Below are positions 1,008 to 16,147 of a stretch of 64,000 bases of DNA, in pieces. Below the pieces are notes generated by a model that was not told where the DNA came from, searched no databases, and worked only from the letters and a program-made list of their open reading frames with translations. The stretch spans positions 419,578 to 483,577 of the forward strand of contig AP024680.1 in assembly GCA_025999275.1 (NCBI GenBank), in the 5' to 3' direction. Origin of the DNA: Patescibacteria group bacterium. Lineage in GTDB: Bacteria > Patescibacteriota > Microgenomatia > UBA8517. A program made the translations under genes and the position numbers. The first letter of the stretch is position 1, and each line of letters opens with the position of its first letter.

Positions 1008-2660
1008 ATGAAGATTAAATTAAATTATGAGAGCTTTTTAATAATTTTGTTTTTATTTTTCTCTTCTTTAATTACTCTAAAAAATATATTTCACCCAGGT
1101 ATTTATACGGCTCATGATATTTGGCATAACCTAGCTCGTCTAAATTATTATTTTCAATTTTTGAAAGATGGGCAGGTACCTCCTTATTTTGGTTCTAATC
1201 TCGCTTATGGTTTTGGTTATCCTTTATTTTTGTTTTCCTATCATTTGCCTTGGATTTTTGGGTCTTTTTTGATGTGGCTTGGTTTTGGTGATGTTAACAC
1301 GATTAAGTTTTTGTTTTTGTTTAGTTTTTTTCTTTCTTGCGTTTCGATGTATTATTTGGCTTTTGAGATATCGAAGAATAAATTTATTTCTTTAGTTTCT
1401 TCAATCTTGTATCTATGGGCTCCTTATAGGTTTTTTATTATCTATGTTTCAGCTGCTGTTGGCATATCTTTTACTTTTATTTTTGTGCCTCTTTTGTTTT
1501 TAGGATTAATTAAGATTTATAAGTCAGAATTTACAAAAGGATTAATTTGGATGACTGTAGGTTTAACTGGTTTAATATTGTCTCATTTTCCAACGTTGGT
1601 GGTTTTTTTGCCTTTGTTTTTACTTTTGTCTGTTTATTTCTTTTTTATGTCTTCCAAAAAAGGGCTTTTTATCAAGTTTTTATTTCTTTCTTTTGTTCTT
1701 TCTTTAGGCATATCTTCTTTTTATTTTATTCCGGCGTTTTATTATAAGGGTCTTGTTTTGGGTTTACCATCCGTTTTTCATATGGGTTTTGTAACCTTGA
1801 GACAATTAATTTATTCCAAGTGGGGCTTTGGAATTATTGTTAATTCGGCTTCAGAAAACCCGTTTTCTTTTCAGATTGGAATATCTCAGTGGTTAATATT
1901 TTTGGTTAGTTTTTTGTTTGTTTTTTTAAACAGGGGCAAATCTAAGAATTTTCCTTTAATTTTAATTTTGATTTTCATTTTTTGTTTTAATGTTTTTCTT
2001 TCAACGTCTTTATCAAAAGCTCTGTGGAGTTCTTTTATCTCAAAAACTGGTCTTGATTTTCCTTTTCGGTTTATTTATCCCAACGTCTTTATCTCAAGTC
2101 TTTTGTTTGTTTATTTAATTAGAGAGATAAAAAATGATTTTATTTACTATTTTTTCTCATTTTTGCTTTTATTTATCGCGTTTTATACCAACCGTAACCA
2201 TATTCGTCCGAATATGTTTTTATCTGAAAATGAGTTTCGTCAGTTTGTTAATTCTGAGGTAACGACCAGTACTTATGGCGAATATTTTCCCTCTTTTGTT
2301 GATTTGTCTTTGGCAAATTACAATTTTAGGGAGATGATTATGAAACAAAACAATCTTTCTTTGGTTTATGAAAACAGCACAAAAAGTGTTTATAAAGTGT
2401 CTTTAGATAATGATGGGGAGGTCGTGTTGCCAAAATATGCTTACTCCTTTATTTCTTTGTATATAAATGGCGTCCCTCATGGCTTTATGATGGGGGAGGG
2501 TGGTTTGATAACATTATCTGTTAATAGAGGTTTGCAGGAGATAGAGGTTGTTTTTAACAAGAGTTTTATAATGAAGTTATCTTTTTATATAACAGTTCTT
2601 AGCTTGTTTGTTTTTTTATTAATTCTTTGGAAGAATATAAAAAGAAATTATGAAATATAG
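1008..2660 (+). CDS. polytopic membrane protein with extracytoplasmic C-terminal domain and terminal TM helix (YfhO-like architecture)
   Basis: approximately 12 TM helices then soluble stretch '...VVLPKYAYSFISLYINGVPHG...' then final TM helix; same topology as the YfhO at 12686-14974. Confidence 0.4.
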   Translation: MKIKLNYESFLIILFLFFSSLITLKNIFHPGIYTAHDIWHNLARLNYYFQFLKDGQVPPYFGSNLAYGFGYPLFLFSYHLPWIFGSFLMWLGFGDVNTIKFLFLFSFFLSCVSMYYLAFEISKNKFISLVSSILYLWAPYRFFIIYVSAAVGISFTFIFVPLLFLGLIKIYKSEFTKGLIWMTVGLTGLILSHFPTLVVFLPLFLLLSVYFFFMSSKKGLFIKFLFLSFVLSLGISSFYFIPAFYYKGLVLGLPSVFHMGFVTLRQLIYSKWGFGIIVNSASENPFSFQIGISQWLIFLVSFLFVFLNRGKSKNFPLILILIFIFCFNVFLSTSLSKALWSSFISKTGLDFPFRFIYPNVFISSLLFVYLIREIKNDFIYYFFSFLLLFIAFYTNRNHIRPNMFLSENEFRQFVNSEVTTSTYGEYFPSFVDLSLANYNFREMIMKQNNLSLVYENSTKSVYKVSLDNDGEVVLPKYAYSFISLYINGVPHGFMMGEGGLITLSVNRGLQEIEVVFNKSFIMKLSFYITVLSLFVFLLILWKNIKRNYEI

Positions 2661-4290
2661 AATAACTCTTATTTTAATTATTATAATTTCCTTTTTTCTA
2701 AGATTTTATAAAGTCACAGAGGTTCCTCCTTCTTTAAATTGGGATGAGGTTTCAATAGGTTATAATGCCTATTCTATTCTAAAGACTGGCAAAGATGAGT
2801 GGAATGAGTTCCTACCCTTACATTTCAAGTCCTATGGAGAGTATAAACTTCCTGCTCAAATTTATTTTTCTATTCCAGCAATTGCCATTTTTGGTCTGAA
2901 TGATTTTTCTGTGAGAATTACACCTGTAGTTTATGGGACATTAACCATTATTTTTCTCTATTTTCTTGCTCTGGAGGTATCAAAATCAAAGGCCATAGCC
3001 CTAATTAGTTCGTTCTTTTTGGCTGTTTCTCCTTGGCATATTCAACTGACTCGTGCTTCTTTTGAATCGTCTTTTGCATTGATGTGGGTTATTTTGGGTA
3101 TGATTTATTTAGTTAAAGGATTTAAAAAAAGAAAATTTTTTATTTTTTCAGCTTTGTTTTTTGCCCTTTCAATGTATACCTACAACTCTGCTCGTGGTTT
3201 TGTTCCTATCTTTATCTTAACTCTAATTCCCTTTTATCTTAGAGATTTTTTGAGGGAAAAGAGAGCAAGTCTTTTTTCAGGTTTTTTGTTTTTGATATTA
3301 ATTTTACCGATTTTTAATTTCTTGTTATTTGGGGAAGGAGAGGCTCGTTATAAATTGGTCAGTGTTACTGATGAAGCAGGGCTTATTCCAAGAATTGAGG
3401 AGAAAAGAAATTTTTCTAATCTACCCCCATTTTTAAAAAGACTTTTTTATAACAGGTACACTTTTATAAGTTATTATATTGCCAGGAATTATTTAGCCCA
3501 TTTTACACCGGATTTTCTTTTTATTAATGGAGCTGGACACAAACAACACCATCCTCAGGGTATAGGGCAGTTGTATTGGATTCAGGCACCATTCTTGCTT
3601 TTGGGATTTTACCTTTTGTTTAAGAATAAAAACAAATATAGATGGATTTTAATTTTATGGCTTTTAACCGCTTTTATACCAGTTTCACTAACCCGCGATA
3701 GCATACCTCATGCTTTGAGAACTTTAAACGCCGCTCCGGTTTATCAAATAGTAACTGCTATAGGTATTTACTATTCTTTTTTTTATTTGTTTAAAAAAGA
3801 TCTTACTACTTACTACTTTCTACTTGCTACTATTGTTTTTGTTTTTCTTTACCAATTTATCAAATATCAGATTTATTTTTATAAACAGTATCCAGTTTTA
3901 TATTCTCGGGATTGGCAGTATGGTAATAAGGAGGCAGTTTATTTTATTAAAGAGCACTATCATGATTATGATTTAATTGTTTTTACTCGTGAGTATGGGG
4001 AGCCTCATATGTTTACATTGTTTTATCTAAATTATCCGCCTGAAAAGTTTCAAAATGATAAAAACTTGGTTCGTTTTGAGACTTTTGATTGGGTTAGGGT
4101 TTTGAGATTTGATAAGTTTTATTTTCCTGATCTTGGAGATGAAGGAACAAAGGTTGAGTATATAAGAAAAGAATTTCCAAATAAGAAGATCTTATTTATA
4201 GCAACTCCTAGTGAGACCCCTTCTGGCCAGGAGATTTTATATAGTATTGATTTCCTTAATGGCAGTCGTGCTTTTAATATTTTCGAATGA
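2650..4290 (+). CDS. GT-C fold membrane glycosyltransferase, PMT/ArnT (GT39/GT83, PMT_2)-like, paralog 1 of tandem array
   Basis: N-terminal 'RFYKVTEVPPSLNWDEVSIGYNAYSILKTGKDEWNEFLPLHF' acidic DE loop motif typical of PMT/ArnT GT-C enzymes; approx 10 TM helices; C-terminal soluble domain with 'WQYG' motif; 11-nt overlap with upstream gene. Confidence 0.75.
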   Translation: MKYRITLILIIIISFFLRFYKVTEVPPSLNWDEVSIGYNAYSILKTGKDEWNEFLPLHFKSYGEYKLPAQIYFSIPAIAIFGLNDFSVRITPVVYGTLTIIFLYFLALEVSKSKAIALISSFFLAVSPWHIQLTRASFESSFALMWVILGMIYLVKGFKKRKFFIFSALFFALSMYTYNSARGFVPIFILTLIPFYLRDFLREKRASLFSGFLFLILILPIFNFLLFGEGEARYKLVSVTDEAGLIPRIEEKRNFSNLPPFLKRLFYNRYTFISYYIARNYLAHFTPDFLFINGAGHKQHHPQGIGQLYWIQAPFLLLGFYLLFKNKNKYRWILILWLLTAFIPVSLTRDSIPHALRTLNAAPVYQIVTAIGIYYSFFYLFKKDLTTYYFLLATIVFVFLYQFIKYQIYFYKQYPVLYSRDWQYGNKEAVYFIKEHYHDYDLIVFTREYGEPHMFTLFYLNYPPEKFQNDKNLVRFETFDWVRVLRFDKFYFPDLGDEGTKVEYIRKEFPNKKILFIATPSETPSGQEILYSIDFLNGSRAFNIFE

Positions 4291-5849
4291 AAAACAAGTT
4301 TCTTTTTTTATTTCTGATTTCAATTTTTGTTTTTAGCAGGCTTTATAAAATTAGTCAGATCCCATCATCTGTCTATTGGGACGAAGCCTCGATTGGTTAT
4401 AATGCATACTCGATTTTAAAAACAGGTAGGGATGAATGGGGTGAATTTATGCCACTTCATTTTAGAGCATTTGGTGAGTTTAAACTTCCTGTTTATATTT
4501 ATTCAACTGTTCCTTTTGTCCATTTTTTCGGCTTAAATGAGGTTTCAGTTCGAATGCCTTCCTTTTTTTATTCCCTTTTTAGTTTATTAATTATTTTTGC
4601 TTTGGTTAAAACAGTTTTTGAAAGTGAATCTTTGGCTTTTTTGTCTGCTTTTCTTTTTACTGTTTTACCTTGGGATTTTATTTTTTCAAGAACTGGTTAT
4701 GAAGCATCTTGTGGTCTTTTCTTTTTTCTTCTCTCGCTTTTGATTTGGTTTTTATTCAAACCTTTTGATCTTAAAATCAAAAGATCTTTTGGAAAAAAGA
4801 TTTTATTTCTGCTTGTTTATTTATTTTCTTTAATTTTTTCTATATATTCATATAACTCTTTTCGTTTTTGGTCGCCTTTGTCTTTTGTTTTCCTTCTAAC
4901 TGCCAGTTTAATTAAACAAATTGGAAATATTAAGTATAAATTGATTTTCTCTTTAATATCTTTTCTTATAATATCTTTTTCTTTTTATCCTATTTATCGC
5001 CTTTACAAATTTGATTATGGTTCAAGCAGGTTCCAGGCCGTTTCTCTTCAAGGGAATTTTAAAGAAAAAACTTATTCTTTTGTCAAAAACTATCTTTCTC
5101 ATTTTTCTTTTGATTTTTTGTTCTTAAATGGTGATTCTAATTTACGAAGCCAAATGCCTGGCTTTGGAGAGATTTATGTTTTGAGTTTGCCATTTATTGT
5201 TTTGGGCTTTTTGTATTTATTAAGAAGAAAAGACGAATTTTCTTCGATTATTATTTTTTTGCTTTTGATTTCACCCATTCCAGCAAGCCTGACTAAAGAA
5301 TCACCGCATTCACTAAGATCAATTCTTTTAGCTTTTGTCTTTCCGGTTTTGATTTCTCTTGGAATTTATAGTTTTATTTCTGTCTTTGGTAGACAGAAAA
5401 AATTTGTTTTATCAATTATAGTCTTTTCTTATCTTTTGTTCTTTGGCTTTTATTACAGCAGTTTTATCAGAAATTATAACAATATTTCTTCTTCAGAGTG
5501 GCAATATTTGTATAAGGAGGTTTTTGTAAATAGGCGAGAAGTTGTTGAAAGAGCCAATAAAGTGATAGTTTCTGATTCTTATGGGCAGCCTTATATTTTT
5601 GCTCTTTTCTATAATGAATTTAGTCCTGAGGAATTTAGAAAGACTGTAAGATATAACTCTCCTGACAAATGGGGTTTTTCAACAGTTTATTCTTTTGATA
5701 AATTTGTATTTAAGAAAGTGGATTATCAAGATTTAGAAAAGGGTTCTATTATTTTTTCTGATGAAGAGATATTGGGAAAAGATAACAGCTTAATTGATAA
5801 GATTGTTAGTAGAGATGGAAAAGATTTGCTTTTTGTATATAAAATTTGA
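4287..5849 (+). CDS. GT-C fold membrane glycosyltransferase, PMT/ArnT-like, paralog 2
   Basis: 'RLYKISQIPSSVYWDEASIGYNAYSILKTGRDEWGEFMPLHF'; ATGA start/stop overlap with paralog 1; C-terminal 'SSEWQYLYKE'. Confidence 0.75.
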   Translation: MKNKFLFLFLISIFVFSRLYKISQIPSSVYWDEASIGYNAYSILKTGRDEWGEFMPLHFRAFGEFKLPVYIYSTVPFVHFFGLNEVSVRMPSFFYSLFSLLIIFALVKTVFESESLAFLSAFLFTVLPWDFIFSRTGYEASCGLFFFLLSLLIWFLFKPFDLKIKRSFGKKILFLLVYLFSLIFSIYSYNSFRFWSPLSFVFLLTASLIKQIGNIKYKLIFSLISFLIISFSFYPIYRLYKFDYGSSRFQAVSLQGNFKEKTYSFVKNYLSHFSFDFLFLNGDSNLRSQMPGFGEIYVLSLPFIVLGFLYLLRRKDEFSSIIIFLLLISPIPASLTKESPHSLRSILLAFVFPVLISLGIYSFISVFGRQKKFVLSIIVFSYLLFFGFYYSSFIRNYNNISSSEWQYLYKEVFVNRREVVERANKVIVSDSYGQPYIFALFYNEFSPEEFRKTVRYNSPDKWGFSTVYSFDKFVFKKVDYQDLEKGSIIFSDEEILGKDNSLIDKIVSRDGKDLLFVYKI

Positions 5850-7450
5850 TTATGAATAGATTAGCTTCTTTTTTGTTTTTGATAATTTTGTTGCTGGGGG
5901 CTTTTTTAAGATTTTATAAACTCGATTCTATTCCACCTTCTCTTAATTGGGATGAAACTGCAGCTGCTTACAATGCTTATACGATCAAAAACTGGGCAAA
6001 GGACGAGTGGGGTAAAACTTTACCTTTAGTGTTTACTTCTTTTCGCGATGATAAAAGACCTATTCATATTTATATAACTTCTATGTTTTTTAATTTATTT
6101 GGAGCTACTGATTTTTCTGCTCGCTTTCCATCTGCTCTTATTGGTTTCTTGATGATTCCTTTGTTTTTTTTATTCGGCAAGCTTTATTTTGGTAGTGATT
6201 TGGCAGGGCTTTTTTCTGCATTTGCTATTGCTTTTTCAAGTTATGATATTCATTATTCCAGGGGGTTGTGGGAAGCTCATTTTGCACTTTTCTTTTTTGT
6301 TTTGGGTTTAGTGTTGTTTAGGGCGGGTTTGACTAGGAAAGGAAGGGAAGCGCTTGTTCCGTTGGCTTATTTCTCTTTTGGATTGTCTCTTTTTTCTTAT
6401 CATTCAGCTTTGGTTGTTGTTCCACCAATGGTTTTTATTCTAACTTTATTTTTTCTTAAGGATCTTTTGAAGATACTCAATTCTTTTTCGTTTGGCATGT
6501 TTATTTTTATCTTTTTTATAAGTCTGCTTTTTTTTGAACCAAGGCTTTTGGGAATAGCAAGGATTAATCAAAATAAGTTGCCTAAAGAAACTGTAGAAAA
6601 GACTTATATTTTCCAAAAAACAGGTAACCATCTTTTGGGACAACTTGAGATTATGATCCCTAAGTACAAGGATTATTTTTCTTATCAATATCTTTTTGAG
6701 GAAGGGAATAAATCACCCCGAGCAAGTATGAATTATGGGGGGAAGTTTTCAAAAACAGTATTTTTTTTGGCAATAATTGGATTAATTTTCCTGATTGCAA
6801 AGGGTAACTTTAAAATTTTTCTTTTAATTCTTTTTTGGTTTTTATTAGCGCCGTTGCCAGCAGTATTTTCAAGTGGAGAGCCACATGCTACAAGAGCAAT
6901 TTTTATGCTTGGTCCTCCTCAAATTTTGGCTGGGTTTGGTTTTTTTAAGATCTGGCAATTTTTGAGAGCTAGTTCCCTGAGGTTTGTTCTTGTTTTGTTG
7001 ATATTGGTGTTTTTTGCCAAAGATAGAGCTCTTCAAATTTTAAATTACTTTGATCGTTATGATAAAGACTACCCTATAGAGTGGCAATATGGTATGAAGC
7101 ATGTGGTTGATATTGTAAGAGACTCTAAATACAAGAAAGTTTATGTAGATATAGTTCGCCAGCAACCTTATATTTTCTTTCTTTGGTATAACAAAGTGCC
7201 TTTGCCTGAGTTTTTGTCGACTGTAAAGTATGATTATTCTTCTTCCTCCAGTTTTAACACGGTTTTTTCTTTTGATAAATATCAATTTGGCGGTTGGGAT
7301 TGGGTAGAGAGTGCTCCTCTTGATAATGTAGCCTATGTTGTTGAACCCTATAAATATACCGGTTTAAGAAGAAGGACTGACTTTCTAAATGTTAACTTGG
7401 TAAAATATCCAAGTGGGGCAGAGGCTTTTTATGTTGTTTCAGTTTATTAA
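5846..7450 (+). CDS. GT-C fold membrane glycosyltransferase, PMT/ArnT-like, paralog 3
   Basis: 'RFYKLDSIPPSLNWDETAAAYNAYTI'; ATGA overlap with paralog 2; C-terminal 'PIEWQYGMKHV'. Confidence 0.75.
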   Translation: MIMNRLASFLFLIILLLGAFLRFYKLDSIPPSLNWDETAAAYNAYTIKNWAKDEWGKTLPLVFTSFRDDKRPIHIYITSMFFNLFGATDFSARFPSALIGFLMIPLFFLFGKLYFGSDLAGLFSAFAIAFSSYDIHYSRGLWEAHFALFFFVLGLVLFRAGLTRKGREALVPLAYFSFGLSLFSYHSALVVVPPMVFILTLFFLKDLLKILNSFSFGMFIFIFFISLLFFEPRLLGIARINQNKLPKETVEKTYIFQKTGNHLLGQLEIMIPKYKDYFSYQYLFEEGNKSPRASMNYGGKFSKTVFFLAIIGLIFLIAKGNFKIFLLILFWFLLAPLPAVFSSGEPHATRAIFMLGPPQILAGFGFFKIWQFLRASSLRFVLVLLILVFFAKDRALQILNYFDRYDKDYPIEWQYGMKHVVDIVRDSKYKKVYVDIVRQQPYIFFLWYNKVPLPEFLSTVKYDYSSSSSFNTVFSFDKYQFGGWDWVESAPLDNVAYVVEPYKYTGLRRRTDFLNVNLVKYPSGAEAFYVVSVY

Positions 7451-7456
7451 ATTTTT

Positions 7457-8317
7457 ATGAGCAAGCTTTCTGTAGTTTTGGCAACATATAACGAAGAGAA
7501 TAATTTAGGTAGATGCCTTGGTGCAGTTAAAGAAATTGCGGATGAGATAGTTGTTGTTGATGGTTCTTCGACTGATAAGACTGTTGAAATAGCTAAAAAA
7601 TATAAAGCTCGTGTTTTAGTTGTTGATAATCCGCCAATCTTTCATATTAATAAACAGAAAGCCCTTGATATGGCCAGATATCCCTGGATTCTGCAGCTTG
7701 ATGCTGATGAAGTTGTATCAAAAGAACTTGCAGAAGAGGTGAGAAAAATAATTAAGATGAGTGATGAGGAAATTGATAATTATCAAAAGAATCTTCCTGA
7801 AAGGGATCTTTTTTTGAGACACCAGTCTTTGCTTGAAAAAAGGGATGGTAAGTTTGGTAATAAAGGTGAGTATGCAGGCTTTTTTATTCCAAGAAGAAAT
7901 TATTTTTTGGGTAAATTCTTAAGGTTTGGTGGTGTTTATCCTGATGGGGTAATTAGATTGGTTAAGAAAGGCAAGGCGTATTTTCCTTGTAAAAGTGTTC
8001 ATGAACAGATTGTAATTGATGGTAGGGTTGGTTGGCTTGCTAATCCACTTTTGCATTATGACTCCCCAACTTTTAAAAGATATCTTGAAAGAAATTCTCG
8101 TTATATCGATTTAATAGTGAAGGATCTAAAGGATAAAAAAGTGGGTAAAAATTTATTTGAGTTTTTAAATTATTTTTTCTTTAAGCCTGTCTGGTGGTTT
8201 TTCTTAACACAAATAAGACACAAAGGAATTCTTGACGGTTGGCAGGGTGTTGTTTTTAGTTTCTTTTCAGCGCTTAGATTTCCAAGAGCTTATTTTAGGT
8301 ATCTTGCAAATAAATAG
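7457..8317 (+). CDS. glycosyltransferase family 2 (GT-A fold)
   Basis: 'LSVVLATYNEENNL...VVVDGSSTDKT...LQLDADEV' canonical GT2 N-terminal and DXD motifs. Confidence 0.85.
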   Translation: MSKLSVVLATYNEENNLGRCLGAVKEIADEIVVVDGSSTDKTVEIAKKYKARVLVVDNPPIFHINKQKALDMARYPWILQLDADEVVSKELAEEVRKIIKMSDEEIDNYQKNLPERDLFLRHQSLLEKRDGKFGNKGEYAGFFIPRRNYFLGKFLRFGGVYPDGVIRLVKKGKAYFPCKSVHEQIVIDGRVGWLANPLLHYDSPTFKRYLERNSRYIDLIVKDLKDKKVGKNLFEFLNYFFFKPVWWFFLTQIRHKGILDGWQGVVFSFFSALRFPRAYFRYLANK

Positions 8318-8326
8318 TTTATAGAT

Positions 8327-9517
8327 ATGATAAATCTTATTAAAAGAATTTCTATATCTGAATTGCTGGTGGTGGTTTTTTTATTTACACTGCATCTTTT
8401 TTTTGTTTTTTTTACTAAATCTAATCTTGGTTTTATAACACTTTTTCCTAAAAACCTTTTCCTCTTTCAGTTATTGGAGATAAGCTTTTCTAATCCCTCC
8501 TTTTTTATCTATATTGTTAGCTTTTTGAATTTTTTATTGATTTTTTGGTTGGCTAATATCTTTTTTGGTAAATCGGGCTTTTTATATCCCTTGATTGTTT
8601 ATTCATTTTCTCCTTGGATTTTTTATTCTGTTGCTTTTAATTCTCATTATGTTTTTTTGCTATTTATAGTTTTGCTTATTATAAGTGGAATTGTGTTTGT
8701 TGAAAAAGGAAAAAGAGGGGCTTTGTTCTTGCTTTTCTTTGCCATTTTTTTAGGTATGGTGAGCGATTTCTTTCTGTTTTTCCTAATTCCTGTTTTCTTT
8801 ATTTTGTATTTAATAATTTTTGGCAGTGAGTCTGTAAGAAAATTTATTTATCCCACAGTTTTCTCACTTTTTGTTTTATTTGTTTTCCTTTTTTTCTTCT
8901 TGTTTAAATTGAGACCCGGTTTTTTTGCAATTGCAGCCAATGAATTTGGAATTTTTGACGATCCTGGTTTTATGAATATGGTAAATACCTATAGGGGAGA
9001 ATCTTCACAAGAAGGTTTTGTTTTCCTGTCTCGTCTTGTTGAAAATAAGTATTTTCTCGGCCTTGAATTTTTAATTCTTAGGTTTCTAAGTTTTATAACA
9101 CCAGCTACTTATTTTACATCGCAAGAGAGGTTTTTTGGTTTTTCTTTCAGTCCACCTATCTTTATTGGTTTTCTGATTCCCTTTTTGTATGGTCTTTACA
9201 GACTTATTTCTGATAAAAAAGCTAGAAAATTTTTGTTTTTGAGTCTTATTTTAATTCTTCCTTCTTTTTTTTCTTCTTTATCAATCAACCTTTCTCGTTT
9301 GATTATTTTTTCTCCTATTATAATTTTTGCAATTTCTTATGGTTTTATTGGCTTATTAAATTTTAAGAAAAGTAAAGCACCAGTTGTCCTGGTTTGGATT
9401 AGTATTTTTCTTCTTATTTTTCAATTGTTTTTGACTGTTTATGATATTAAGTTAAAAGAAAAGGAGAGGTTTTTAAGGTACTATAACTTTGATAGCAGTT
9501 ATAAAATCAAAATATGA
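8327..9517 (+). CDS. polytopic integral membrane protein, function unknown
   Basis: 396 aa, almost entirely hydrophobic helices; embedded in glycosylation operon. Confidence 0.5.
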   Translation: MINLIKRISISELLVVVFLFTLHLFFVFFTKSNLGFITLFPKNLFLFQLLEISFSNPSFFIYIVSFLNFLLIFWLANIFFGKSGFLYPLIVYSFSPWIFYSVAFNSHYVFLLFIVLLIISGIVFVEKGKRGALFLLFFAIFLGMVSDFFLFFLIPVFFILYLIIFGSESVRKFIYPTVFSLFVLFVFLFFFLFKLRPGFFAIAANEFGIFDDPGFMNMVNTYRGESSQEGFVFLSRLVENKYFLGLEFLILRFLSFITPATYFTSQERFFGFSFSPPIFIGFLIPFLYGLYRLISDKKARKFLFLSLILILPSFFSSLSINLSRLIIFSPIIIFAISYGFIGLLNFKKSKAPVVLVWISIFLLIFQLFLTVYDIKLKEKERFLRYYNFDSSYKIKI

Positions 9518-11158
9518 AGATTAAAAAAAGAACGACCTTAATATTACTGGCTATAACTTTGATCGCTGCTTTTTTAAGATTTTACAAAATAGATAGAAAT
9601 CCTCCTAGTTTGACTGGTGATGAAATTTCTTTTGGCTATGCAGCTTACTCTATTTTGAAAACTGGTAGAGATGAATCTGGAAGATTCTTGCCACTTGTAA
9701 TTCAATCAATTGGTGATTACAAAAATCCTTTGCCAGCATATTTGATGGTTGTATCATTTAAATTTTTTGGAGTGAATGATTTTGCAGTTAGATTCCAGAA
9801 TGCACTTTTTGGGACATTAACAGTTTTTGTTTTTTTCTTTTTTCTTTTTTATCTCTTAAAGAATGATAAGCAAGCTTTATTGGGTAGTTTCTTTTTGGCT
9901 TTATCTCCATGGCATATTTTTTATTCTCGTTTTGCTTACGAACCATTGATTGCTAGTTTTTTTTGCTCTTTTAGGTATATGGTCTTTTATGAAGATGCTT
10001 GATAGCAAAAGCGTTAAATTTGCCTTCCTATCATCATTTTTTTTGATTCTAACCATGTATACAGGTTTTGCTCAAAGGTTATTTGTACCTGTTTTCTTCT
10101 TCTTTCTTGTTTTGTTTAATTTAAGAAAGTTGTTTAAGGTTAAAAAGATATTTTTAATTTTTTCTTTTTTATCATTCTTGTTTGTTTTGCCGCTAATCTA
10201 TGTCTCCTTATTTCAAGGAGCATCTACTAGATTTAAAATGGTTTTTATAGCTAATGATATAAATTATGTTCGTTATGTTATTTTTGGTTATGCAAGCCGT
10301 TTTATTGACTATTGTTATCTTTTCTTCTTCTGGATTAAAAGATATTTAAATTATTTACAACCTAGGTTTCTATTTTCAGATGCTTTGCAGATGGTTTTAC
10401 CAGGAAATATTGGATTAGGAATTTTATATCCTTTTGAGGGTTTGTTTTTGGTTTTTGGCATATTTGAGCTTATAAAAAGAAGAATTTTACATAAGGATAT
10501 GCTTTTAATTTGGCTTTTTACCGGTATAGTTCCTGATTCTATAACAAACAATGAGCAACATGCGGGTAGACTTCTTCATATAGCTCCACTTATATTTACT
10601 ATTACCACCTTAGGAGCAGTAAGTTTATGGCGTCTTTTAAATAAAAAAGTTAAGGGTATTAAAAGTTTTTTTATTTTATCTGTTCTTGTTGCCTTTTCTG
10701 TTTTAAATATTCTGTTTGCTTGGCTCTTGTTTAGAGTTCATTTTCCTTATCAAAAGAGTGAAGCTTTTGATGAGGGTTGGAGAGAAGTTGTTTATTCGGT
10801 AATGAAATATCAGGATAATTATGAAAAGATTATCTTTGATATCAGAAGGGGTGTTGATGGCCCATATATGGTGAGCAATCCTCATATGTATTTGTTGTTT
10901 TACTCCAAATATGATCCATCCAAATATCAAACAATAAAGAAAGTATTTAATGTGTATGGTGATAGTGAACCTTACTTTGCTTTTGATAAATATTCTTTTG
11001 GGTATATTAATTGGTACAGAGATTCTAAATATAAAAATACTCTTTTGGTAGGCAGTCCTTGGAGTTTCCCTAAGGAGGAAGATTTGGGAAATAAATTGAT
11101 TGAAAAGATTTATCTTTCGAACGGCAAACCCGCTTTTTATCTAGTTTCCACTGAATAG
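9514..11158 (+). pseudogene. GT-C PMT/ArnT-like paralog 4, interrupted by +1 frameshift inside a T8 homopolymer (9957-9964)
   Basis: ORF 9514-10002 carries the N-terminal 'RFYKIDRNPPSLTGDEISFGYAAYSILKTGRDE' motif and ends 'ASFFCSF...'; ORF 9950-11158 (TTG start in track) continues the paralog alignment ('ALLGIWSFMKMLDSK' matches 'FALMWVILGMIYLVKGF' of paralog 1); removing one T from the T8 run fuses the two into a single ORF of about 565 aa. Confidence 0.7.
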
Positions 11159-11164
11159 TTGCTA

Positions 11165-11188
11165 CTTTAAGGGAGCCTCCTTTAAAGG
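11165..11188. repeat. palindromic REP-like motif copy A (inverted orientation), between convergent gene ends
   Basis: CTTTAAGGGAGCCTCCTTTAAAGG; reverse complement shares the 17-nt core with copies at 11679 and 11897; may also act as bidirectional terminator. Confidence 0.7.
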
Positions 11189-11881
11189 TTAAGTGAGATC
11201 ATTATCTTCGATTATTAATTTTTTAATTTTTTGGGTGTTTAATGAATATCTTTCTACAAAGTCTTTATAGTTGTTTATCTTCTTGAATTCGGGTGCTGTG
11301 GGTTTATTAAAAACTTGTAGTATGATATTCGGATTTATCCAAGCTGTTTTGCGTATTCCTAGATACTCTGCGTAGGAGGAGTAAGAATCTACTAGATTGT
11401 TAGCATACTCTTTGGGGTTTAGGTGGATATATCGTGACAAGTGAATTAATTGCTCATCGTTTTTAACAATAACTGCTTTATAATGCCCCTGGAATAGTTT
11501 TCCAACACGCTTATACTTTTTATTGAAATACATAGAATATCTGGTGGAAATTGACCTCATAAAACTTTCCATACCATTTTTGTTTTCTTGCTTTATTAGT
11601 AAATGGAAATGATTTGGCATTAGACAGTAGGCAATTAATTCTATTTCTTTGTTGTAATTTTTAGGTTGTCTGGGTACACCTTTAAAGGAGGCTCCTTTTA
11701 AGGTAAAAGTTTTTCTAATATCATCTGGTTTGGGAGGGGGCAGTAAGGCTTGCTTTAGATAGTTTAAGAATACTTTATAATCTTGGGAATCAAGGAAAAT
11801 TTTTCTTTTTTCAACACCCCTATTGTAAATGTGGTAGTAACCTTGCTCAAAGTATATTTTAATGGAGTTCTTTTGAGGCAT
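11189..11881 (-). CDS. IS200-like / REP-associated tyrosine transposase (HuH Y1 transposase, PF01797-like)
   Basis: 'YYHIYNRGVEKRKIF' N-terminus, HuH motif 'LMPNHFHLLI', catalytic-Tyr motif 'RYIHLNPKEY' - all hallmarks of TnpA(IS200)/RayT. Confidence 0.8.
   Translation of the reverse strand: MPQKNSIKIYFEQGYYHIYNRGVEKRKIFLDSQDYKVFLNYLKQALLPPPKPDDIRKTFTLKGASFKGVPRQPKNYNKEIELIAYCLMPNHFHLLIKQENKNGMESFMRSISTRYSMYFNKKYKRVGKLFQGHYKAVIVKNDEQLIHLSRYIHLNPKEYANNLVDSYSSYAEYLGIRKTAWINPNIILQVFNKPTAPEFKKINNYKDFVERYSLNTQKIKKLIIEDNDLT
11679..11703. repeat. palindromic REP-like motif copy B, located inside the transposase CDS
   Basis: CCTTTAAAGGAGGCTCCTTTTAAGG; encodes the in-frame segment '...LKGASFKGVPRQ...' of the transposase. 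Confidence 0.7.
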
Positions 11882-11896
11882 ATTTGCATTATTATA

Positions 11897-11920
11897 CCTT
11901 TAAAGGAGGCTCCTTGGAAG
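11897..11920. repeat. palindromic REP-like motif copy C, upstream of transposase start
   Basis: CCTTTAAAGGAGGCTCCTTGGAAG. Confidence 0.7.
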
Positions 11921-11958
11921 TGTGAGAAGATTTTTAGATTTTTTGATAAACTTATACT

Positions 11959-12705
11959 ATGGAACTTTTGGGTAAAAATGTTGTTATACTCGGGGCGACA
12001 GGGGGAATAGGAAGATCCCTCGCCTTTGCTTTTGCAGCTAAAGGCGCCAATCTTATCTTGACTGGTAGGAGAAAGAGAATTCTTGATGCGCTTTCAAAAG
12101 AAATTCGTAAATTTTCTGTTTCAGTTGATACTTTTACTCTTGATGTCACAAAAGAAAAAGAATGGAGGCCTTTTATAAGAAAGGTGGAAAGTAAATTTGG
12201 CCATATTGATATTTTAATTAATTCTTTTGGCGTTGGTATTTATAAAAAACTCAAAGATTTAGAGATAGAGGATTTTAAAAAGTCCATTGATGTTAATTTA
12301 AACTCTGTCTTTTTGTCGATTAAGAATTTTTTGCCGCTTCTTGAAAAATCTCATAAAGCCTATGTTTTGAGTCTTGGTTCTGGTATGGGTAAAATTGGCG
12401 TCTCAGGCAGGTCTTCTTATTGCGCTAGCAAGTTTGGATTAAGGGGGTTAATGCTTTCTCTTGCTAAGGAGTATAAAAGTACTAATATTAATTTCTGTCT
12501 TTTGACCTTAGGTAGCGTTCTGACAGCGTTTGGACCTTTAAGTCTTGAGGAAAAAATAGAAAAGCAAAAGAAGGGGAAGGGATATCTTGATCCAGTAAGC
12601 CTTGCCAAGGCTATAGCTTCAAAGATAGAAAATGAAACATTAGAAGAAGAAGTCTCTATTTATCCGTCTAGGTATTTTAAGGAATCTAAAAGTGGTGTTG
12701 TTTGA
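11959..12705 (+). CDS. short-chain dehydrogenase/reductase (classical SDR)
   Basis: 'VVILGATGGIGRSLA' TGxxxGxG NAD(P)-binding motif and 'YCASKFGLRG' YxxxK catalytic motif. Confidence 0.85.
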   Translation: MELLGKNVVILGATGGIGRSLAFAFAAKGANLILTGRRKRILDALSKEIRKFSVSVDTFTLDVTKEKEWRPFIRKVESKFGHIDILINSFGVGIYKKLKDLEIEDFKKSIDVNLNSVFLSIKNFLPLLEKSHKAYVLSLGSGMGKIGVSGRSSYCASKFGLRGLMLSLAKEYKSTNINFCLLTLGSVLTAFGPLSLEEKIEKQKKGKGYLDPVSLAKAIASKIENETLEEEVSIYPSRYFKESKSGVV

Positions 12706-14974
12706 TTTTTGTCTTTCTTGCTTCTATGGCTAGTATTAAAAACCAAATTACAAATGATATTCCTGATATTTTTTTCCCTAGTTGAAACATCTTTGGATAA
12801 TAATAAAATCTGATTATTCCTTTTCCTTCTGGAACTTCTACAGATCTAAATACTTCTAAGTATTTTTTGATAGGTACATCCTTGTTGTTTAACTGAGCTT
12901 TCCAGTCATTTGTATAAGTATCAGTTAGTATAAGATTTCCTTTTTCTGGAGTTGAAAATTCGATAAAAACTTCGTTTGGGGAGTATTTTACAATTTTTGC
13001 TTCTCCAACTATTTCTCCTTTATCACTTTCTATTCTTACTCTTTCTTTATATTTAGTGTTTTCTAAGATGTATACTGATCCGTATTCGTATACTTTTTGC
13101 CAGTCTCTTAAATTTATTGCCCAATAGGTATGCTTTCCTTCTTTGTCTATATTTGTATCGTTAGAGTATTTAAGAGCCAGTAGATATTTGACTGACAATT
13201 TTCCAAGCATATCTGCATCGTAGTTTGATGACAAATTTGAGTATCTGGAAAGAAATTTCAAATTTTGTTTTGATATCTGCTTTTGATAGAAAGCGACATA
13301 TTCCTTTAGAGCTAGAGGGTCATACCCCGATAAACTGTATAGTCTGTAGAAAGCCCATGTGTTTGGTGGTAGCAATGGCCCTCTTTCACTTTCTACTCTA
13401 GCTAGATTAGCATTTTCTTTGAGATAGTTGATTATTTCTGTATTTGGGTATGCAAATTTATTAGGTGTAAATGGTAGATATTTCCAATTGTAATAAAAAA
13501 GTTCAAATATTGTTACAATAACTATTGATATAGTAAGCAATTTATTTTTTTTGTTGAATATTAAAGAAAACACAATTATGGTAAATAGAATTCCTGTTGG
13601 TATTAGTGAGTTCTTTATTGCGATTTTTAGGTGCGATGCAGACTGTTCATTTGATTGATTCAAGAAAAAAATATATGTTACAAACAGCTCTAATATTATT
13701 AGAACTATTGCTAATAAATTTTTTTGAATAAATTTTGATACTTTTGTTTTGCTGTTGTTATCTAGCCATTTTCCTATTAGAACACTTCCACAAAATATAT
13801 AAACAAAACCCATTCTTCCAGCTGCGCTTGTGGTAATTAGGGGGAGTTTTGTTTGGTAAATCATTTTAGATAGAGGATTGTCAAATATGAGTAACAAAGA
13901 TAATAAGCACCATATGGTGAAAAATTTTTCTTCTTTGGAAAGAAGTTTGAAATTTATTATTGACCATATTATTGCGAAGATTCCTACTATTCCAAGATAT
14001 ATTGTCGTTTCATGATAGTTAAAAAAGCCCCAATAATTGCCTGTAACTGGGTTGCCAAAGAAATTTGGGGCTATCAAAGTGGCTAGGTGCCTTAATGGTA
14101 GTAATCCATAGTTGTACATTTGTATATAGTTTTCATTGAAGCGTATAGATTCTGTTAGTTGTTGATATGTTGGTAATACTTGTATTAATAAAGTGCCAAT
14201 TCCTAGAATTTCTACCAACAGGAAGTATGATAGTTTAGAAAGTTTGTTTTTTAAATCTGGGTTAAGAATTTTAAGAAGAAAATAGCTGTTGAATATTATT
14301 AGAGAAAATATAAATGCTTGAAAATGACCCGAAGAACCAAGCAGAAATATTAAAGGAACAGCTAGTAACAAGTATATTTTTTTATTTTTTTCTTCGTATT
14401 GGTTTATAAGTAAGAGAAGCAGAGGCAAATAAATCATAGCAAATCCCAAATTTGCAAATTGCAACCATGTTATGGCGAAAGTTGAAAAGGTGTAACAGAT
14501 AGATCCAAGAATGGCAGGTAATTGGGATATTCTAAGTGATCTAAGGAAAAAGTACATAGATATTATAGAACCAATACTTTGAGAAATTATCATTAGGTTC
14601 CATCCTTTTAGATCTCCAAGAAATATTTGAAATAGGTTGAATGGATTTAGGGCTCCTGATTGAAAATTAGCCAATAGGGGGATTCCTGCATATTCATATG
14701 GGTTCCAAAGAGGCCACTGAAAGTTTCTATAAGATTCAGCAATCAATGACTTCCATATAAATATTTGAGAAAATATGTCAGATATTAAAGGATTTTTTAT
14801 TGGTACTCCTACTATATAGCCCCACTTATAATCTAGCCAAGGATAATATGCTCCAACCAAGAGATCTCCTGGAAATAATATTAGTCCTTTAAATATCGCT
14901 TTCCAGTAAAAAGCTATTACTATCAATATTAGAAGTGAAATAAAAAAAATTTCTTTGGTTTTTATTTTTTTCAC
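12686..14974 (-). CDS. YfhO-family polytopic membrane protein (GT-C-like glycan transferase)
   Basis: 762 aa; N-terminal '...LFPGDLLVGAYYPW', many TM helices, extracytoplasmic domain '...NDWKAQLNNKDVPIKKY...' followed by terminal TM - YfhO architecture; converges on and overlaps SDR gene by 20 nt. Confidence 0.6.
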   Translation of the reverse strand: MKKIKTKEIFFISLLILIVIAFYWKAIFKGLILFPGDLLVGAYYPWLDYKWGYIVGVPIKNPLISDIFSQIFIWKSLIAESYRNFQWPLWNPYEYAGIPLLANFQSGALNPFNLFQIFLGDLKGWNLMIISQSIGSIISMYFFLRSLRISQLPAILGSICYTFSTFAITWLQFANLGFAMIYLPLLLLLINQYEEKNKKIYLLLAVPLIFLLGSSGHFQAFIFSLIIFNSYFLLKILNPDLKNKLSKLSYFLLVEILGIGTLLIQVLPTYQQLTESIRFNENYIQMYNYGLLPLRHLATLIAPNFFGNPVTGNYWGFFNYHETTIYLGIVGIFAIIWSIINFKLLSKEEKFFTIWCLLSLLLIFDNPLSKMIYQTKLPLITTSAAGRMGFVYIFCGSVLIGKWLDNNSKTKVSKFIQKNLLAIVLIILELFVTYIFFLNQSNEQSASHLKIAIKNSLIPTGILFTIIVFSLIFNKKNKLLTISIVIVTIFELFYYNWKYLPFTPNKFAYPNTEIINYLKENANLARVESERGPLLPPNTWAFYRLYSLSGYDPLALKEYVAFYQKQISKQNLKFLSRYSNLSSNYDADMLGKLSVKYLLALKYSNDTNIDKEGKHTYWAINLRDWQKVYEYGSVYILENTKYKERVRIESDKGEIVGEAKIVKYSPNEVFIEFSTPEKGNLILTDTYTNDWKAQLNNKDVPIKKYLEVFRSVEVPEGKGIIRFYYYPKMFQLGKKISGISFVIWFLILAIEARKTKIKQHHF

Positions 14975-15034: not shown

Positions 15035-16147
15035 ATGTATAATGTAGCCATAGATACAGGGCCACTTTTAACAGGGCATTCTTTTCGAGGAATAGGAGTT
15101 AACACAAGGGAGTTGTTATTTGCTTTAGAAAAGATTGAAAGGAAAGACATAAAGATTGAAGCTGTTGATTTTTCAAAGACTGATCTTTCCAAATATGATA
15201 TTGTTCACTACCAAAGTTTCAATCCTTTTTTTAAAACTTTGCCTGGCAAAAAGCTTGGTAAAAAAGTGGTAGTTACCATACATGACTTAATTCCACTTAT
15301 TTATAAAGAGCATTACCCGCCAGGTATAAGAGGGAAAATTAATTTTTGGTTACAGAAAAGTAGGCTTTTAAAATATGTTGATTTGGTTATAACAATTTCT
15401 GAAACTTCCAAAAAAGATATTGTTCGGTTTCTTAATTATAGTTCAGAAAAAATTAAGGTTGTTCATCTTGCACCTCGTGATATTTTTAGGCCTGTAAATG
15501 ATTTGAAAAAACTTCAAAAGATTAAGAAGAAGTTTAATCTTCCTGATAAATTTATTCTTTATGTTGGGGATGTTAATTACAATAAGAATATTTCAACTTT
15601 GGTCAAAGCCTGTAAGGATTTAGACATTACTCTTATAATCGTTGGTAAACATGCTTTGCAGATTGACGAAGGCCATTCAAAAAAGCCTTATCTTGGCGGG
15701 CCAAATGACTGGATAAGATTTTTGTTCAATAAACCCCATCCAGAAACTGCTCATTTTAAAACACTTTCACACCTTTTCTCCCAGAACAAAAAAATTGTTC
15801 GTCTAGGTTATGTTGAGGATGAAGATCTTGTTTCTGTTTATAATCTAGCATCTGTTTATGTTCAACCTTCTTTTTACGAAGGTTTTGGTCTTCCTGTTCT
15901 TGAGGCGATGGCTTGTGGAACACCAGTTATTGCAAGCAAAATTAATGCTCACAGGGAGATTGCAGATAATAAAGCTTTATTTTTTAACCCAAAAGATGTT
16001 TCAGATCTGAAAGATAAAGTAAGGTTGGTGATTGAAGATAAAAGGCTGGCAACTAAACTTTCTCAAAAATCTCTTGATAATGTCAAAAAATATTCTTGGG
16101 AAAAAACTGCTAAAGGTGTTCTTGAGGCCTATGAAGAAATTCTTTAA
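15035..16147 (+). CDS. glycosyltransferase family 4 (GT-B fold)
   Basis: 'EGFGLPVLEAMACGTPVIAS' GT4/GT1 signature; start could alternatively be ATG 15020. Confidence 0.85.
   Translation: MYNVAIDTGPLLTGHSFRGIGVNTRELLFALEKIERKDIKIEAVDFSKTDLSKYDIVHYQSFNPFFKTLPGKKLGKKVVVTIHDLIPLIYKEHYPPGIRGKINFWLQKSRLLKYVDLVITISETSKKDIVRFLNYSSEKIKVVHLAPRDIFRPVNDLKKLQKIKKKFNLPDKFILYVGDVNYNKNISTLVKACKDLDITLIIVGKHALQIDEGHSKKPYLGGPNDWIRFLFNKPHPETAHFKTLSHLFSQNKKIVRLGYVEDEDLVSVYNLASVYVQPSFYEGFGLPVLEAMACGTPVIASKINAHREIADNKALFFNPKDVSDLKDKVRLVIEDKRLATKLSQKSLDNVKKYSWEKTAKGVLEAYEEIL

Follow-up and report, generated by a model that had tools for sequence, protein, structure and literature searches.

One of the membrane glycosyltransferase genes in the cell-surface glycosylation island of the Patescibacteria genome KatS3mg088 (AP024680) is split into two ORFs by a single additional T within a run of T residues, and this frameshift is polymorphic between populations. 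The interruption is probably a real and recent slippage mutation from T7 to T8, one that knocks out a redundant GT-C paralog and differs between strains. The affected gene spans 9514-11158 on the forward strand and would encode a GT-C (PMT/PMT_2-type) protein of 547 aa with a tract of T7, according to the repaired translation, the Pfam matches, the intact allele and a structural model. The frameshift site is the T8 homopolymer at 9957-9964 (forward strand), which carries one T more than the T7 allele and is the only indel in 6343 aligned bases.

KatS3mg088 is a circular "finished" MAG of 785,860 bp obtained from hot-spring sediment at Katase (52 °C), and it was assembled with metaFlye 2.8.3 from PacBio Sequel II HiFi reads only, at 9.6x coverage (PMC9671151, Kato et al. 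2022). GTDB places it in the genus Ch104c, family UBA8517, order GWA2-44-7 and class Microgenomatia, while the Silva classification is Candidatus Woesebacteria (PMC9671151). The HiFi run behind the genome is DRR290133. The window, meaning the whole 64-kb stretch of DNA that was analysed, is a cell-surface glycosylation island with a dozen or so ORFs for PMT_2-like, GT-C-type membrane glycosyltransferases, and the other island genes include GT2, GT4, Wzy_C, DegT, GDP-mannose dehydratase and YfhO. Three intact full-length paralogs are encoded in an operon-like array on the forward strand (2650-7450), followed by a GT2 gene (7457-8317) that could make a polyprenyl-phosphate-linked sugar donor. 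The immediate upstream neighbour of the broken gene encodes a 396-aa PMT_2-like membrane protein (8327-9517, forward strand); its stop overlaps the start of the broken gene, and it is identical in the two strains compared below. Directly downstream, an IS200/RAYT-like Y1 transposase gene lies on the reverse strand (11189-11881); both strains have it, whereas the sister species lacks it at the syntenic position.

The earlier note had reported a run of eight T residues at 9957-9964, a stop in frame 1 shortly afterwards and a continuation of the protein in frame 2, and all three are present in the sequence. Positions 9950-9969 of the forward strand read TTGCTAGTTTTTTTTGCTCT, with the T8 run in the context ...GAACCATTGATTGCTAG-TTTTTTTT-GCTCTTTTAGG... 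and located exactly at 9957-9964. The frame 1 ORF (9514-10002, 162 aa) has the C-terminal end ...EPLIASFFCSFRYMVFYEDA*, and frame 2 is open from 9950 to 11158 and reads ...LLVFFALLGIWSFMKMLDSKS... across the break, with a longer stretch of this frame given by ...VFFALLGIWSFMKMLDSK... Computational removal of one T from the T8 run restores a single ORF that reads ...EPLIASFFALLGIWSFMKM..., as had been claimed, although its length is 547 aa and not the approximately 565 aa given in that note. In the intact T7 allele the tract is read AGT TTT TTT, encoding Ser-Phe-Phe, and the additional T shifts the frame at codons 148-150. The length of the tract thereby switches the reading frame, with T7 giving the 547-aa protein and T8 leading to a stop after 12 out-of-frame codons. 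A true tract of T9, encoding Phe-Phe-Phe, is rejected because the orthologs lack an extra residue and the sister strain has T7.

The two halves are deposited in GenBank as separate hypothetical proteins, with sequences identical to BCX14758.1 and BCX14759.1. The N-terminal fragment (BCX14758.1, KatS3mg088_441; 9514-10002, forward strand) consists of 150 native residues followed by the 12 out-of-frame residues CSFRYMVFYEDA, and it contains only the first helices and the invariant D36-E37 loop motif. The C-terminal fragment (BCX14759.1, KatS3mg088_442; 9989-11158, forward strand) is annotated as 389 aa from an internal ATG, while its open frame extends back to 9950; it comprises the other transmembrane helices together with the C-terminal alpha/beta domain. 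The ORFs at 9514-10002 and 9950-11158 are two halves of one GT-C (PMT/PMT_2) glycosyltransferase gene. The repaired protein exhibits Pfam matches to PMT (45.2 bits, cut-off 22.7) and PMT_2 (36.5 bits, cut-off 26.1), in agreement with the GT-C identity first proposed for it, and the PMT/PMT_2 match at residues 13-228 is unbroken over codons 148-150. It also aligns from end to end with the three intact paralogs of the window, as had been suggested, with 32% identity to the product of 2650-4290 and 27% identity to each of the products of 4287-5849 and 5846-7450. When it is aligned with 117 orthologs, there is no gap at the break.

An AlphaFold2 model of the intact allele (pLDDT 82.6, pTM 0.83) predicts a long domain of membrane helices and, starting at about residue 420, a C-terminal alpha/beta domain. 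A Foldseek search with this model gave 30 matches with E <= 0.001, all of which are GT-C proteins: STT3, ArnT (5EZM/5F15), AglB, PglB, Pmt4, ALG9/12 and Pmt1-Pmt2. The ArnT structures 5EZM and 5F15 superpose on the model with TM-scores of 0.53-0.56. Identity to the solved structures among these fold matches is only 12-19%, and a search of PDB sequences with the family profile gave no match, so that the placement came from the fold search. Residues G35, D36 and E37 are invariant in an alignment of 19 orthologs and are predicted by the model to lie in the first external loop, between helix 1 (residues 5-23) and the helix at residues 35-50. The protein shares with ArnT (GT83, PDB 5EZM/5F15), PMT (GT39) and STT3/PglB/AglB the PMT/PMT_2 Pfam assignment, an Asp-Glu pair in the first loop and, as predicted, the GT-C fold, but it differs from them in its low identity to the solved structures. 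By sequence and model, it is a clear but divergent GT-C member.

The model places the break within a hydrophobic segment, the predicted helix at residues 142-164. Read from the sequence, the only possible products of the T8 allele are a 162-aa stub that includes the acidic loop and, should translation start at the internal ATG at 9989, a 389-aa piece that would lack this loop. The split enzyme is very probably inactive, since the catalytic Asp-Glu loop occurs only in the 162-aa stub, and this stub is missing most of the membrane domain as well as the entire C-terminal domain. We infer from this a loss of function.

An intact version of the same gene is found in a second strain. The protein cluster at 90% identity that holds both fragments also includes a member of 547 aa, which is encoded on Logan contig SRR23829991_10272 (6342 bp) with the same gene order as in the window. 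This contig aligns to positions 5960-12302 of the window with 98.83% identity over 6343 nt, and the differences are 73 substitutions and one indel, which is the missing T that gives T7. Within the gene, the sole other difference is A10770G, a change from Asp to Gly, which amounts to one substitution in 1644 nt and one amino acid. The other 54 of the 55 A/T runs of at least 6 nt in the shared 6.3 kb have the same length in both strains. Since the sister strain differs by exactly one T at this position, the frameshift is pinned to the T tract. The slipped-strand origin that had been put forward for it is supported. SNP density between the two strains is mosaic across the island, a patchy, recombination-like divergence.

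Variation of the tract length between populations, which the earlier note had suggested looking for, is therefore present, with T8 in the Katase HiFi data and T7 together with an intact gene in SRR23829991; this also excludes a pseudogene that is fixed in all strains. The frameshift appears recent, as the rest of the gene shows no decay. The comparison covers two strains with one tract length per sample, and a single T7/T8 difference between two strains means that the mutation happened; it is not evidence of high-frequency reversible switching. Exact-protein look-ups with the upstream neighbour and both fragments recovered only the NCBI genome, DRR290133 and SRR23829991. An exact-pattern DNA scan around the tract that allowed T6-T10 gave no matches in the GTDB species-representative genomes and none in the JGI metagenomes. 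Protein-guided searches for the locus in the GTDB representatives and JGI metagenomes identified no contigs of the same species, and only orthologs of at most 55% identity, all of them intact, which were used solely to compare the tract between species. One 89-aa fragment from ENA covers the C-terminus only and does not reach the tract.

More distant relatives encode the protein in one piece. The best orthologs exhibit 72-73% identity and are 545-547 aa in length. The sister-species cluster has 17 members, including QLG69540.1 of 'Candidatus Woesebacteria bacterium CH104c'; 14 of the 15 members listed are 545 aa, and one, located on a 1.6-kb contig, is shorter. The sister-species locus is syntenic with the window. 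All 117 orthologs and the sister strain have single ORFs of 531-589 aa, so that the two-frame organisation is not conserved. The three codons of the tract encode Ser, Phe and Phe in 78, 64 and 99, respectively, of the 118 aligned sequences, and the repaired reading needs no gap here. The DNA of the sister species reads AGTTTTTTC (T6) at this site, and seven other species have T5, T6, T7 or an interrupted run, all in frame. The tract is not kept as a tract in the orthologs beyond what the protein needs, while Ser-Phe-Phe is conserved at the protein level. Because Ser-Phe-Phe is conserved while the DNA tract varies in the relatives, and because Phe codons are mostly TTT, the T run simply results from the use of Phe codons in AT-rich DNA and is not a maintained repeat.

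The homopolymers of the whole window were examined by simulating a 1-nt insertion or deletion at every one of them, with Pfam searches on the candidate joinable pairs. The window contains 134 A/T runs of at least 7 nt and 35 of at least 8 nt (24 T8, 10 A8 and 1 A9). The length of T8 is itself not unusual in the window; what is unusual is the breakage of a gene, which occurs at 1 of the 134 runs of at least 7 nt. In the simulation, only the run at 9957-9964 joined two halves of one protein. Overlapping ORF pairs at 16032, 32529, 45739, 48137 and 58332 were considered as further frameshifts and rejected, as each pair encodes two complete and different domains; the joinable but distinct gene pairs are GT4 with GT-C, DegT with a PLP enzyme, and GT2 with Wzy_C.

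Synonymous codons were also shuffled within each of the 51 window genes, 200 times. Coding T runs of at least 9 nt are absent from the window, compared with 19.8 expected (minimum 13 in the 200 shuffles), and coding T8 runs number 20 compared with 31.8 expected, a count as low as this being reached in none of the 200 shuffles. Coding T7 runs are as frequent as expected (65 observed, 67.8 expected). Phe is encoded in the window genes by 1708 TTT and 262 TTC codons, and runs of Phe are visibly interrupted by TTC, for example at 9826-9850. The absence of T runs of at least 9 nt and the depletion of T8 relative to the synonymous shuffles indicate selection against long T runs in the window genes, contrary to the enrichment that contingency loci show. 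The mutant T8 lies at the very top of the tolerated range of T-run lengths. A ceiling of eight that results from artefactual collapse of longer runs was rejected, since such collapse would break frames window-wide, yet the frames are intact.

Homopolymer indels are the main residual error of PacBio HiFi chemistry, and a sequencing or assembly error was one of the two options originally given for the break. In this case the genome would truly carry T7, and the additional T would be a HiFi homopolymer error in a low-coverage consensus. The assembly was made by metaFlye from HiFi data at 9.6x without short-read polishing, the gene is otherwise pristine and T7 is found in the closest strain, all of which would fit such an error. 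However, Logan contig DRR290133_4123 (58 kb), from an independent k-mer (de Bruijn-graph) assembly of the same run made without a polishing step, shows 100% identity with the window across 7170 nt, including the T8 run. As both assemblies of this run have T8, the additional T does not come from the Flye polisher. From the way Logan is constructed, the T8 path would need at least 2 supporting reads and better coverage than the alternative; both T8 assemblies rest on one HiFi read set of roughly 10x and one technology. The other 133 A/T runs of at least 7 nt in the 64 kb cause no frameshift, and all other homopolymers in the shared 6.3 kb agree in length with the second strain. Consensus homopolymer errors are therefore rare in this assembly, given that no other run breaks a gene and that the shared runs agree. 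The option of an error is weakened by the second assembler and by the absence of any other broken gene, and with HiFi data only at 9.6x it still stands as an unlikely explanation, T8 presumably being what the reads say.

The other option originally given was phase variation, by analogy with the contingency genes of Campylobacter, Helicobacter and Neisseria. The tract would then be a poly-T contingency locus that flips the glycosyltransferase ON (T7) or OFF (T8, T6) at high frequency through slipped-strand mispairing, diversifying the surface glycan of an episymbiont against phages or hosts. The tract length does differ between near-identical strains in a gene that is otherwise undamaged, and the product is a surface-glycan enzyme encoded in a strain-variable island with the mosaic SNP density described above. 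Its functional class is also that of known phase-variable genes (PMC8355987, PMC9176279). Against this, the ON tract is only T7 and is not conserved, being T6 in the sister species and T5-T7 or interrupted elsewhere, and it is fully explained by the conserved Ser-Phe-Phe and AT-rich codons. The window genes are depleted of T8 and have no T9 or longer run relative to the synonymous shuffles, the other 54 A/T runs of at least 6 nt in the shared 6.3 kb are all invariant between the strains, and every full-length protein listed for the sister-species cluster is in frame. The locus fails two defining tests for a contingency locus, over-representation of the tract and its conservation. With an ON tract that is short, unconserved and accounted for by Ser-Phe-Phe, and with long T runs depleted, the analogy is not supported by these results.

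The glycosyltransferase genes of Campylobacter, Helicobacter, Neisseria, Haemophilus and Pasteurella with poly-G/C contingency loci (for example PMC8355987, PMC9176279) resemble the present gene in that an intragenic homopolymer sets the frame of a surface-glycan enzyme and in that its length differs between closely related genomes. The tracts of those loci are longer, usually G/C of at least 8 nt, and are over-represented, conserved and variable within single cultures, whereas the tract described here is T7/T8, unconserved, under-represented in the window genes and found in one state per sample. By analogy, the event may work like the first step of classical slipped-strand phase variation. 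A literature search that combined Patescibacteria with phase variation or homopolymers gave no paper mentioning Patescibacteria among the matches listed, and phase variation is not known to us to have been described from this uncultured and host-dependent radiation. High-frequency switching at this locus is improbable on this evidence. The wider proposal, that homopolymer slippage is a working ON/OFF mechanism for the surface glycosyltransferases of Patescibacteria (CPR) episymbionts and that T7/T8 is one visible switch in a recombining glycosylation island, is quite doubtful.

Recoding rescue has been proposed before for frameshifted genes of AT-rich endosymbionts, and here it would mean that the T8 allele still gives some full-length enzyme, either through RNA polymerase dropping one U on the U8/A8 run or through a +1 shift of the ribosome on UUU-UUU-U. 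The transcriptional-slippage rescue of poly(A) tracts in Buchnera and Blochmannia and of tssM in Citrobacter rodentium (PMC4256274) likewise involves a frameshift in an A/T homopolymer of an AT-rich genome. These cases reportedly have generally longer runs and/or frameshifts maintained across lineages, whereas the present gene has an 8-nt run and a strain-specific frameshift and needs the less favoured deletion direction. A/T runs are classic slippage substrates, tRNA-Phe could presumably re-pair perfectly in the +1 frame on the U run, and there is a weak downstream hairpin (z = -2.18). [quoted passage not shown] Rescue of T8 would require a 1-nt deletion on a run of only 8 nt, the frameshift is unconserved, with single ORFs in the sister strain and all orthologs, neither a stop nor an evident slow codon comes after the run, and the intact allele has the hairpin sequence as well. 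Rescue of this kind is very unlikely. Programmed -1 frameshifting with a downstream hairpin is rejected, because the frame after the run is +1 and because the hairpin, besides being weak, is not specific to one allele.

The slippage mutation favoured here would have proceeded as follows. In the dominant genotype at Katase, one T would have been gained in the T7 run that encodes the conserved Ser-Phe-Phe of a predicted transmembrane helix, a gain of the error type typical of replication slippage. The frame would then end 12 codons on, giving the 162-aa stub and an inactive enzyme, while the intact 547-aa allele would persist in another population, that of the 98.8%-identical strain. The loss may be tolerated through paralog redundancy or may be favoured by pressure to vary surface glycans. 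Redundancy of the broken gene is plausible, as the island holds a dozen or so PMT_2-like ORFs in addition to other glycosyltransferases.

The event is of a well-known type, in which strains differ by a frameshift allele in a homopolymer of a surface-glycan gene. It corresponds to the A/T-run frameshift alleles and pseudogenes of AT-rich reduced genomes, which also result from a single-base change in a gene that is otherwise undamaged and is intact in close relatives, and which occur in the same type of small, AT-rich, symbiont-like genome. Unlike them, it concerns a short run (7 to 8 nt) and a gene with many paralogs instead of a single-copy core gene, in an uncultured Patescibacterium known from metagenomes only. 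The most fitting description of the T8 allele is a loss of function, at strain level, in a redundant surface-glycan gene, and not a dedicated switch.

For the annotation of this genome, BCX14758.1 and BCX14759.1 should be treated as one disrupted GT-C gene instead of two hypothetical proteins. The upper limit on T-run length across the window is a helpful indication that slippage exerts real selection in the AP024680 genome. If the reads held mixed tract lengths, the locus would provide the first hint of phase variation in Patescibacteria; otherwise it would be a case of routine pseudogenisation. The split gene offers a concrete example, with its two alleles in different samples, of strain-level gain and loss within the very large GT-C repertoire of the Woesebacteria.

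The window (1-64,000) is occupied almost entirely by a single glycosylation island whose genes lie on the same strand, and its GC content is 28-35% compared with 35.4% for the genome. The island encodes about a dozen membrane proteins of the PMT_2/GT-C-like type; several of them lack a Pfam match yet can be aligned to the remaining ones. Further genes encode GT2 and GT4 glycosyltransferases, a Wzy_C protein, a DegT aminotransferase and a GDP-mannose 4,6-dehydratase.

Comparison of positions 5960-12302 with the corresponding contig of the second strain (L002) revealed a mosaic pattern of divergence. The two strains differ at 42 of 861 nt in the GT2 gene (7457-8317; 11 aa) and at 17 of 693 nt in the Y1 transposase gene (11189-11881, reverse strand). 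They are identical over the 1191 nt of the GT-C gene at 8327-9517, and the frameshifted GT-C gene (9514-11158, forward strand) differs by one substitution and the indel. This mosaic looks like the product of recombination tracts within the island.

The Y1 gene lies just 3' of the broken gene and encodes an IS200/RAYT-like tyrosine transposase (Pfam Y1_Tnp) that also matches the NCBIfam REP-associated tyrosine transposase model below its cut-off. It is followed by an SDR gene (11959-12705) and then, further from the broken gene, by a YfhO-family gene of 762 aa (12686-14974, reverse strand). In the sister species, the syntenic region (L005) lacks both the Y1 transposase gene and the YfhO-family gene, and the ortholog of the broken gene is directly followed there by the SDR and GT4 genes.

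The closest full-length NCBI ortholog of the broken gene's product is MCM8832094.1 (72% identity), encoded on a 4.5 kb contig labelled 'Candidatus Omnitrophica bacterium'. This contig is probably mis-binned, judging by the affiliation of all other relatives, which are Microgenomatia (Woesebacteria).

An RNA hairpin is predicted at 9975-10060 on the forward strand, beginning approximately 10 nt 3' of the T8 tract. Its predicted folding energy is -20.4 kcal/mol (z = -2.18), and 4 of 200 shuffles did as well. The hairpin is probably incidental, as it is weak and is also carried by the intact allele.

T-run lengths in the 51 large ORFs of the window were compared with those expected from 200 synonymous-codon shuffles. 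The longest coding T run is 8 nt; no runs of at least 9 nt were observed against 19.8 expected (shuffle minimum 13). T8 runs are likewise depleted (20 versus 31.8 expected) and T6 runs are enriched (187 versus 144.8). Stretches of four phenylalanines are broken up at the nucleotide level by TTC codons, as at 9826-9850. Together, these patterns suggest that slippage-prone runs are strongly selected against in this AT-rich, reduced genome.
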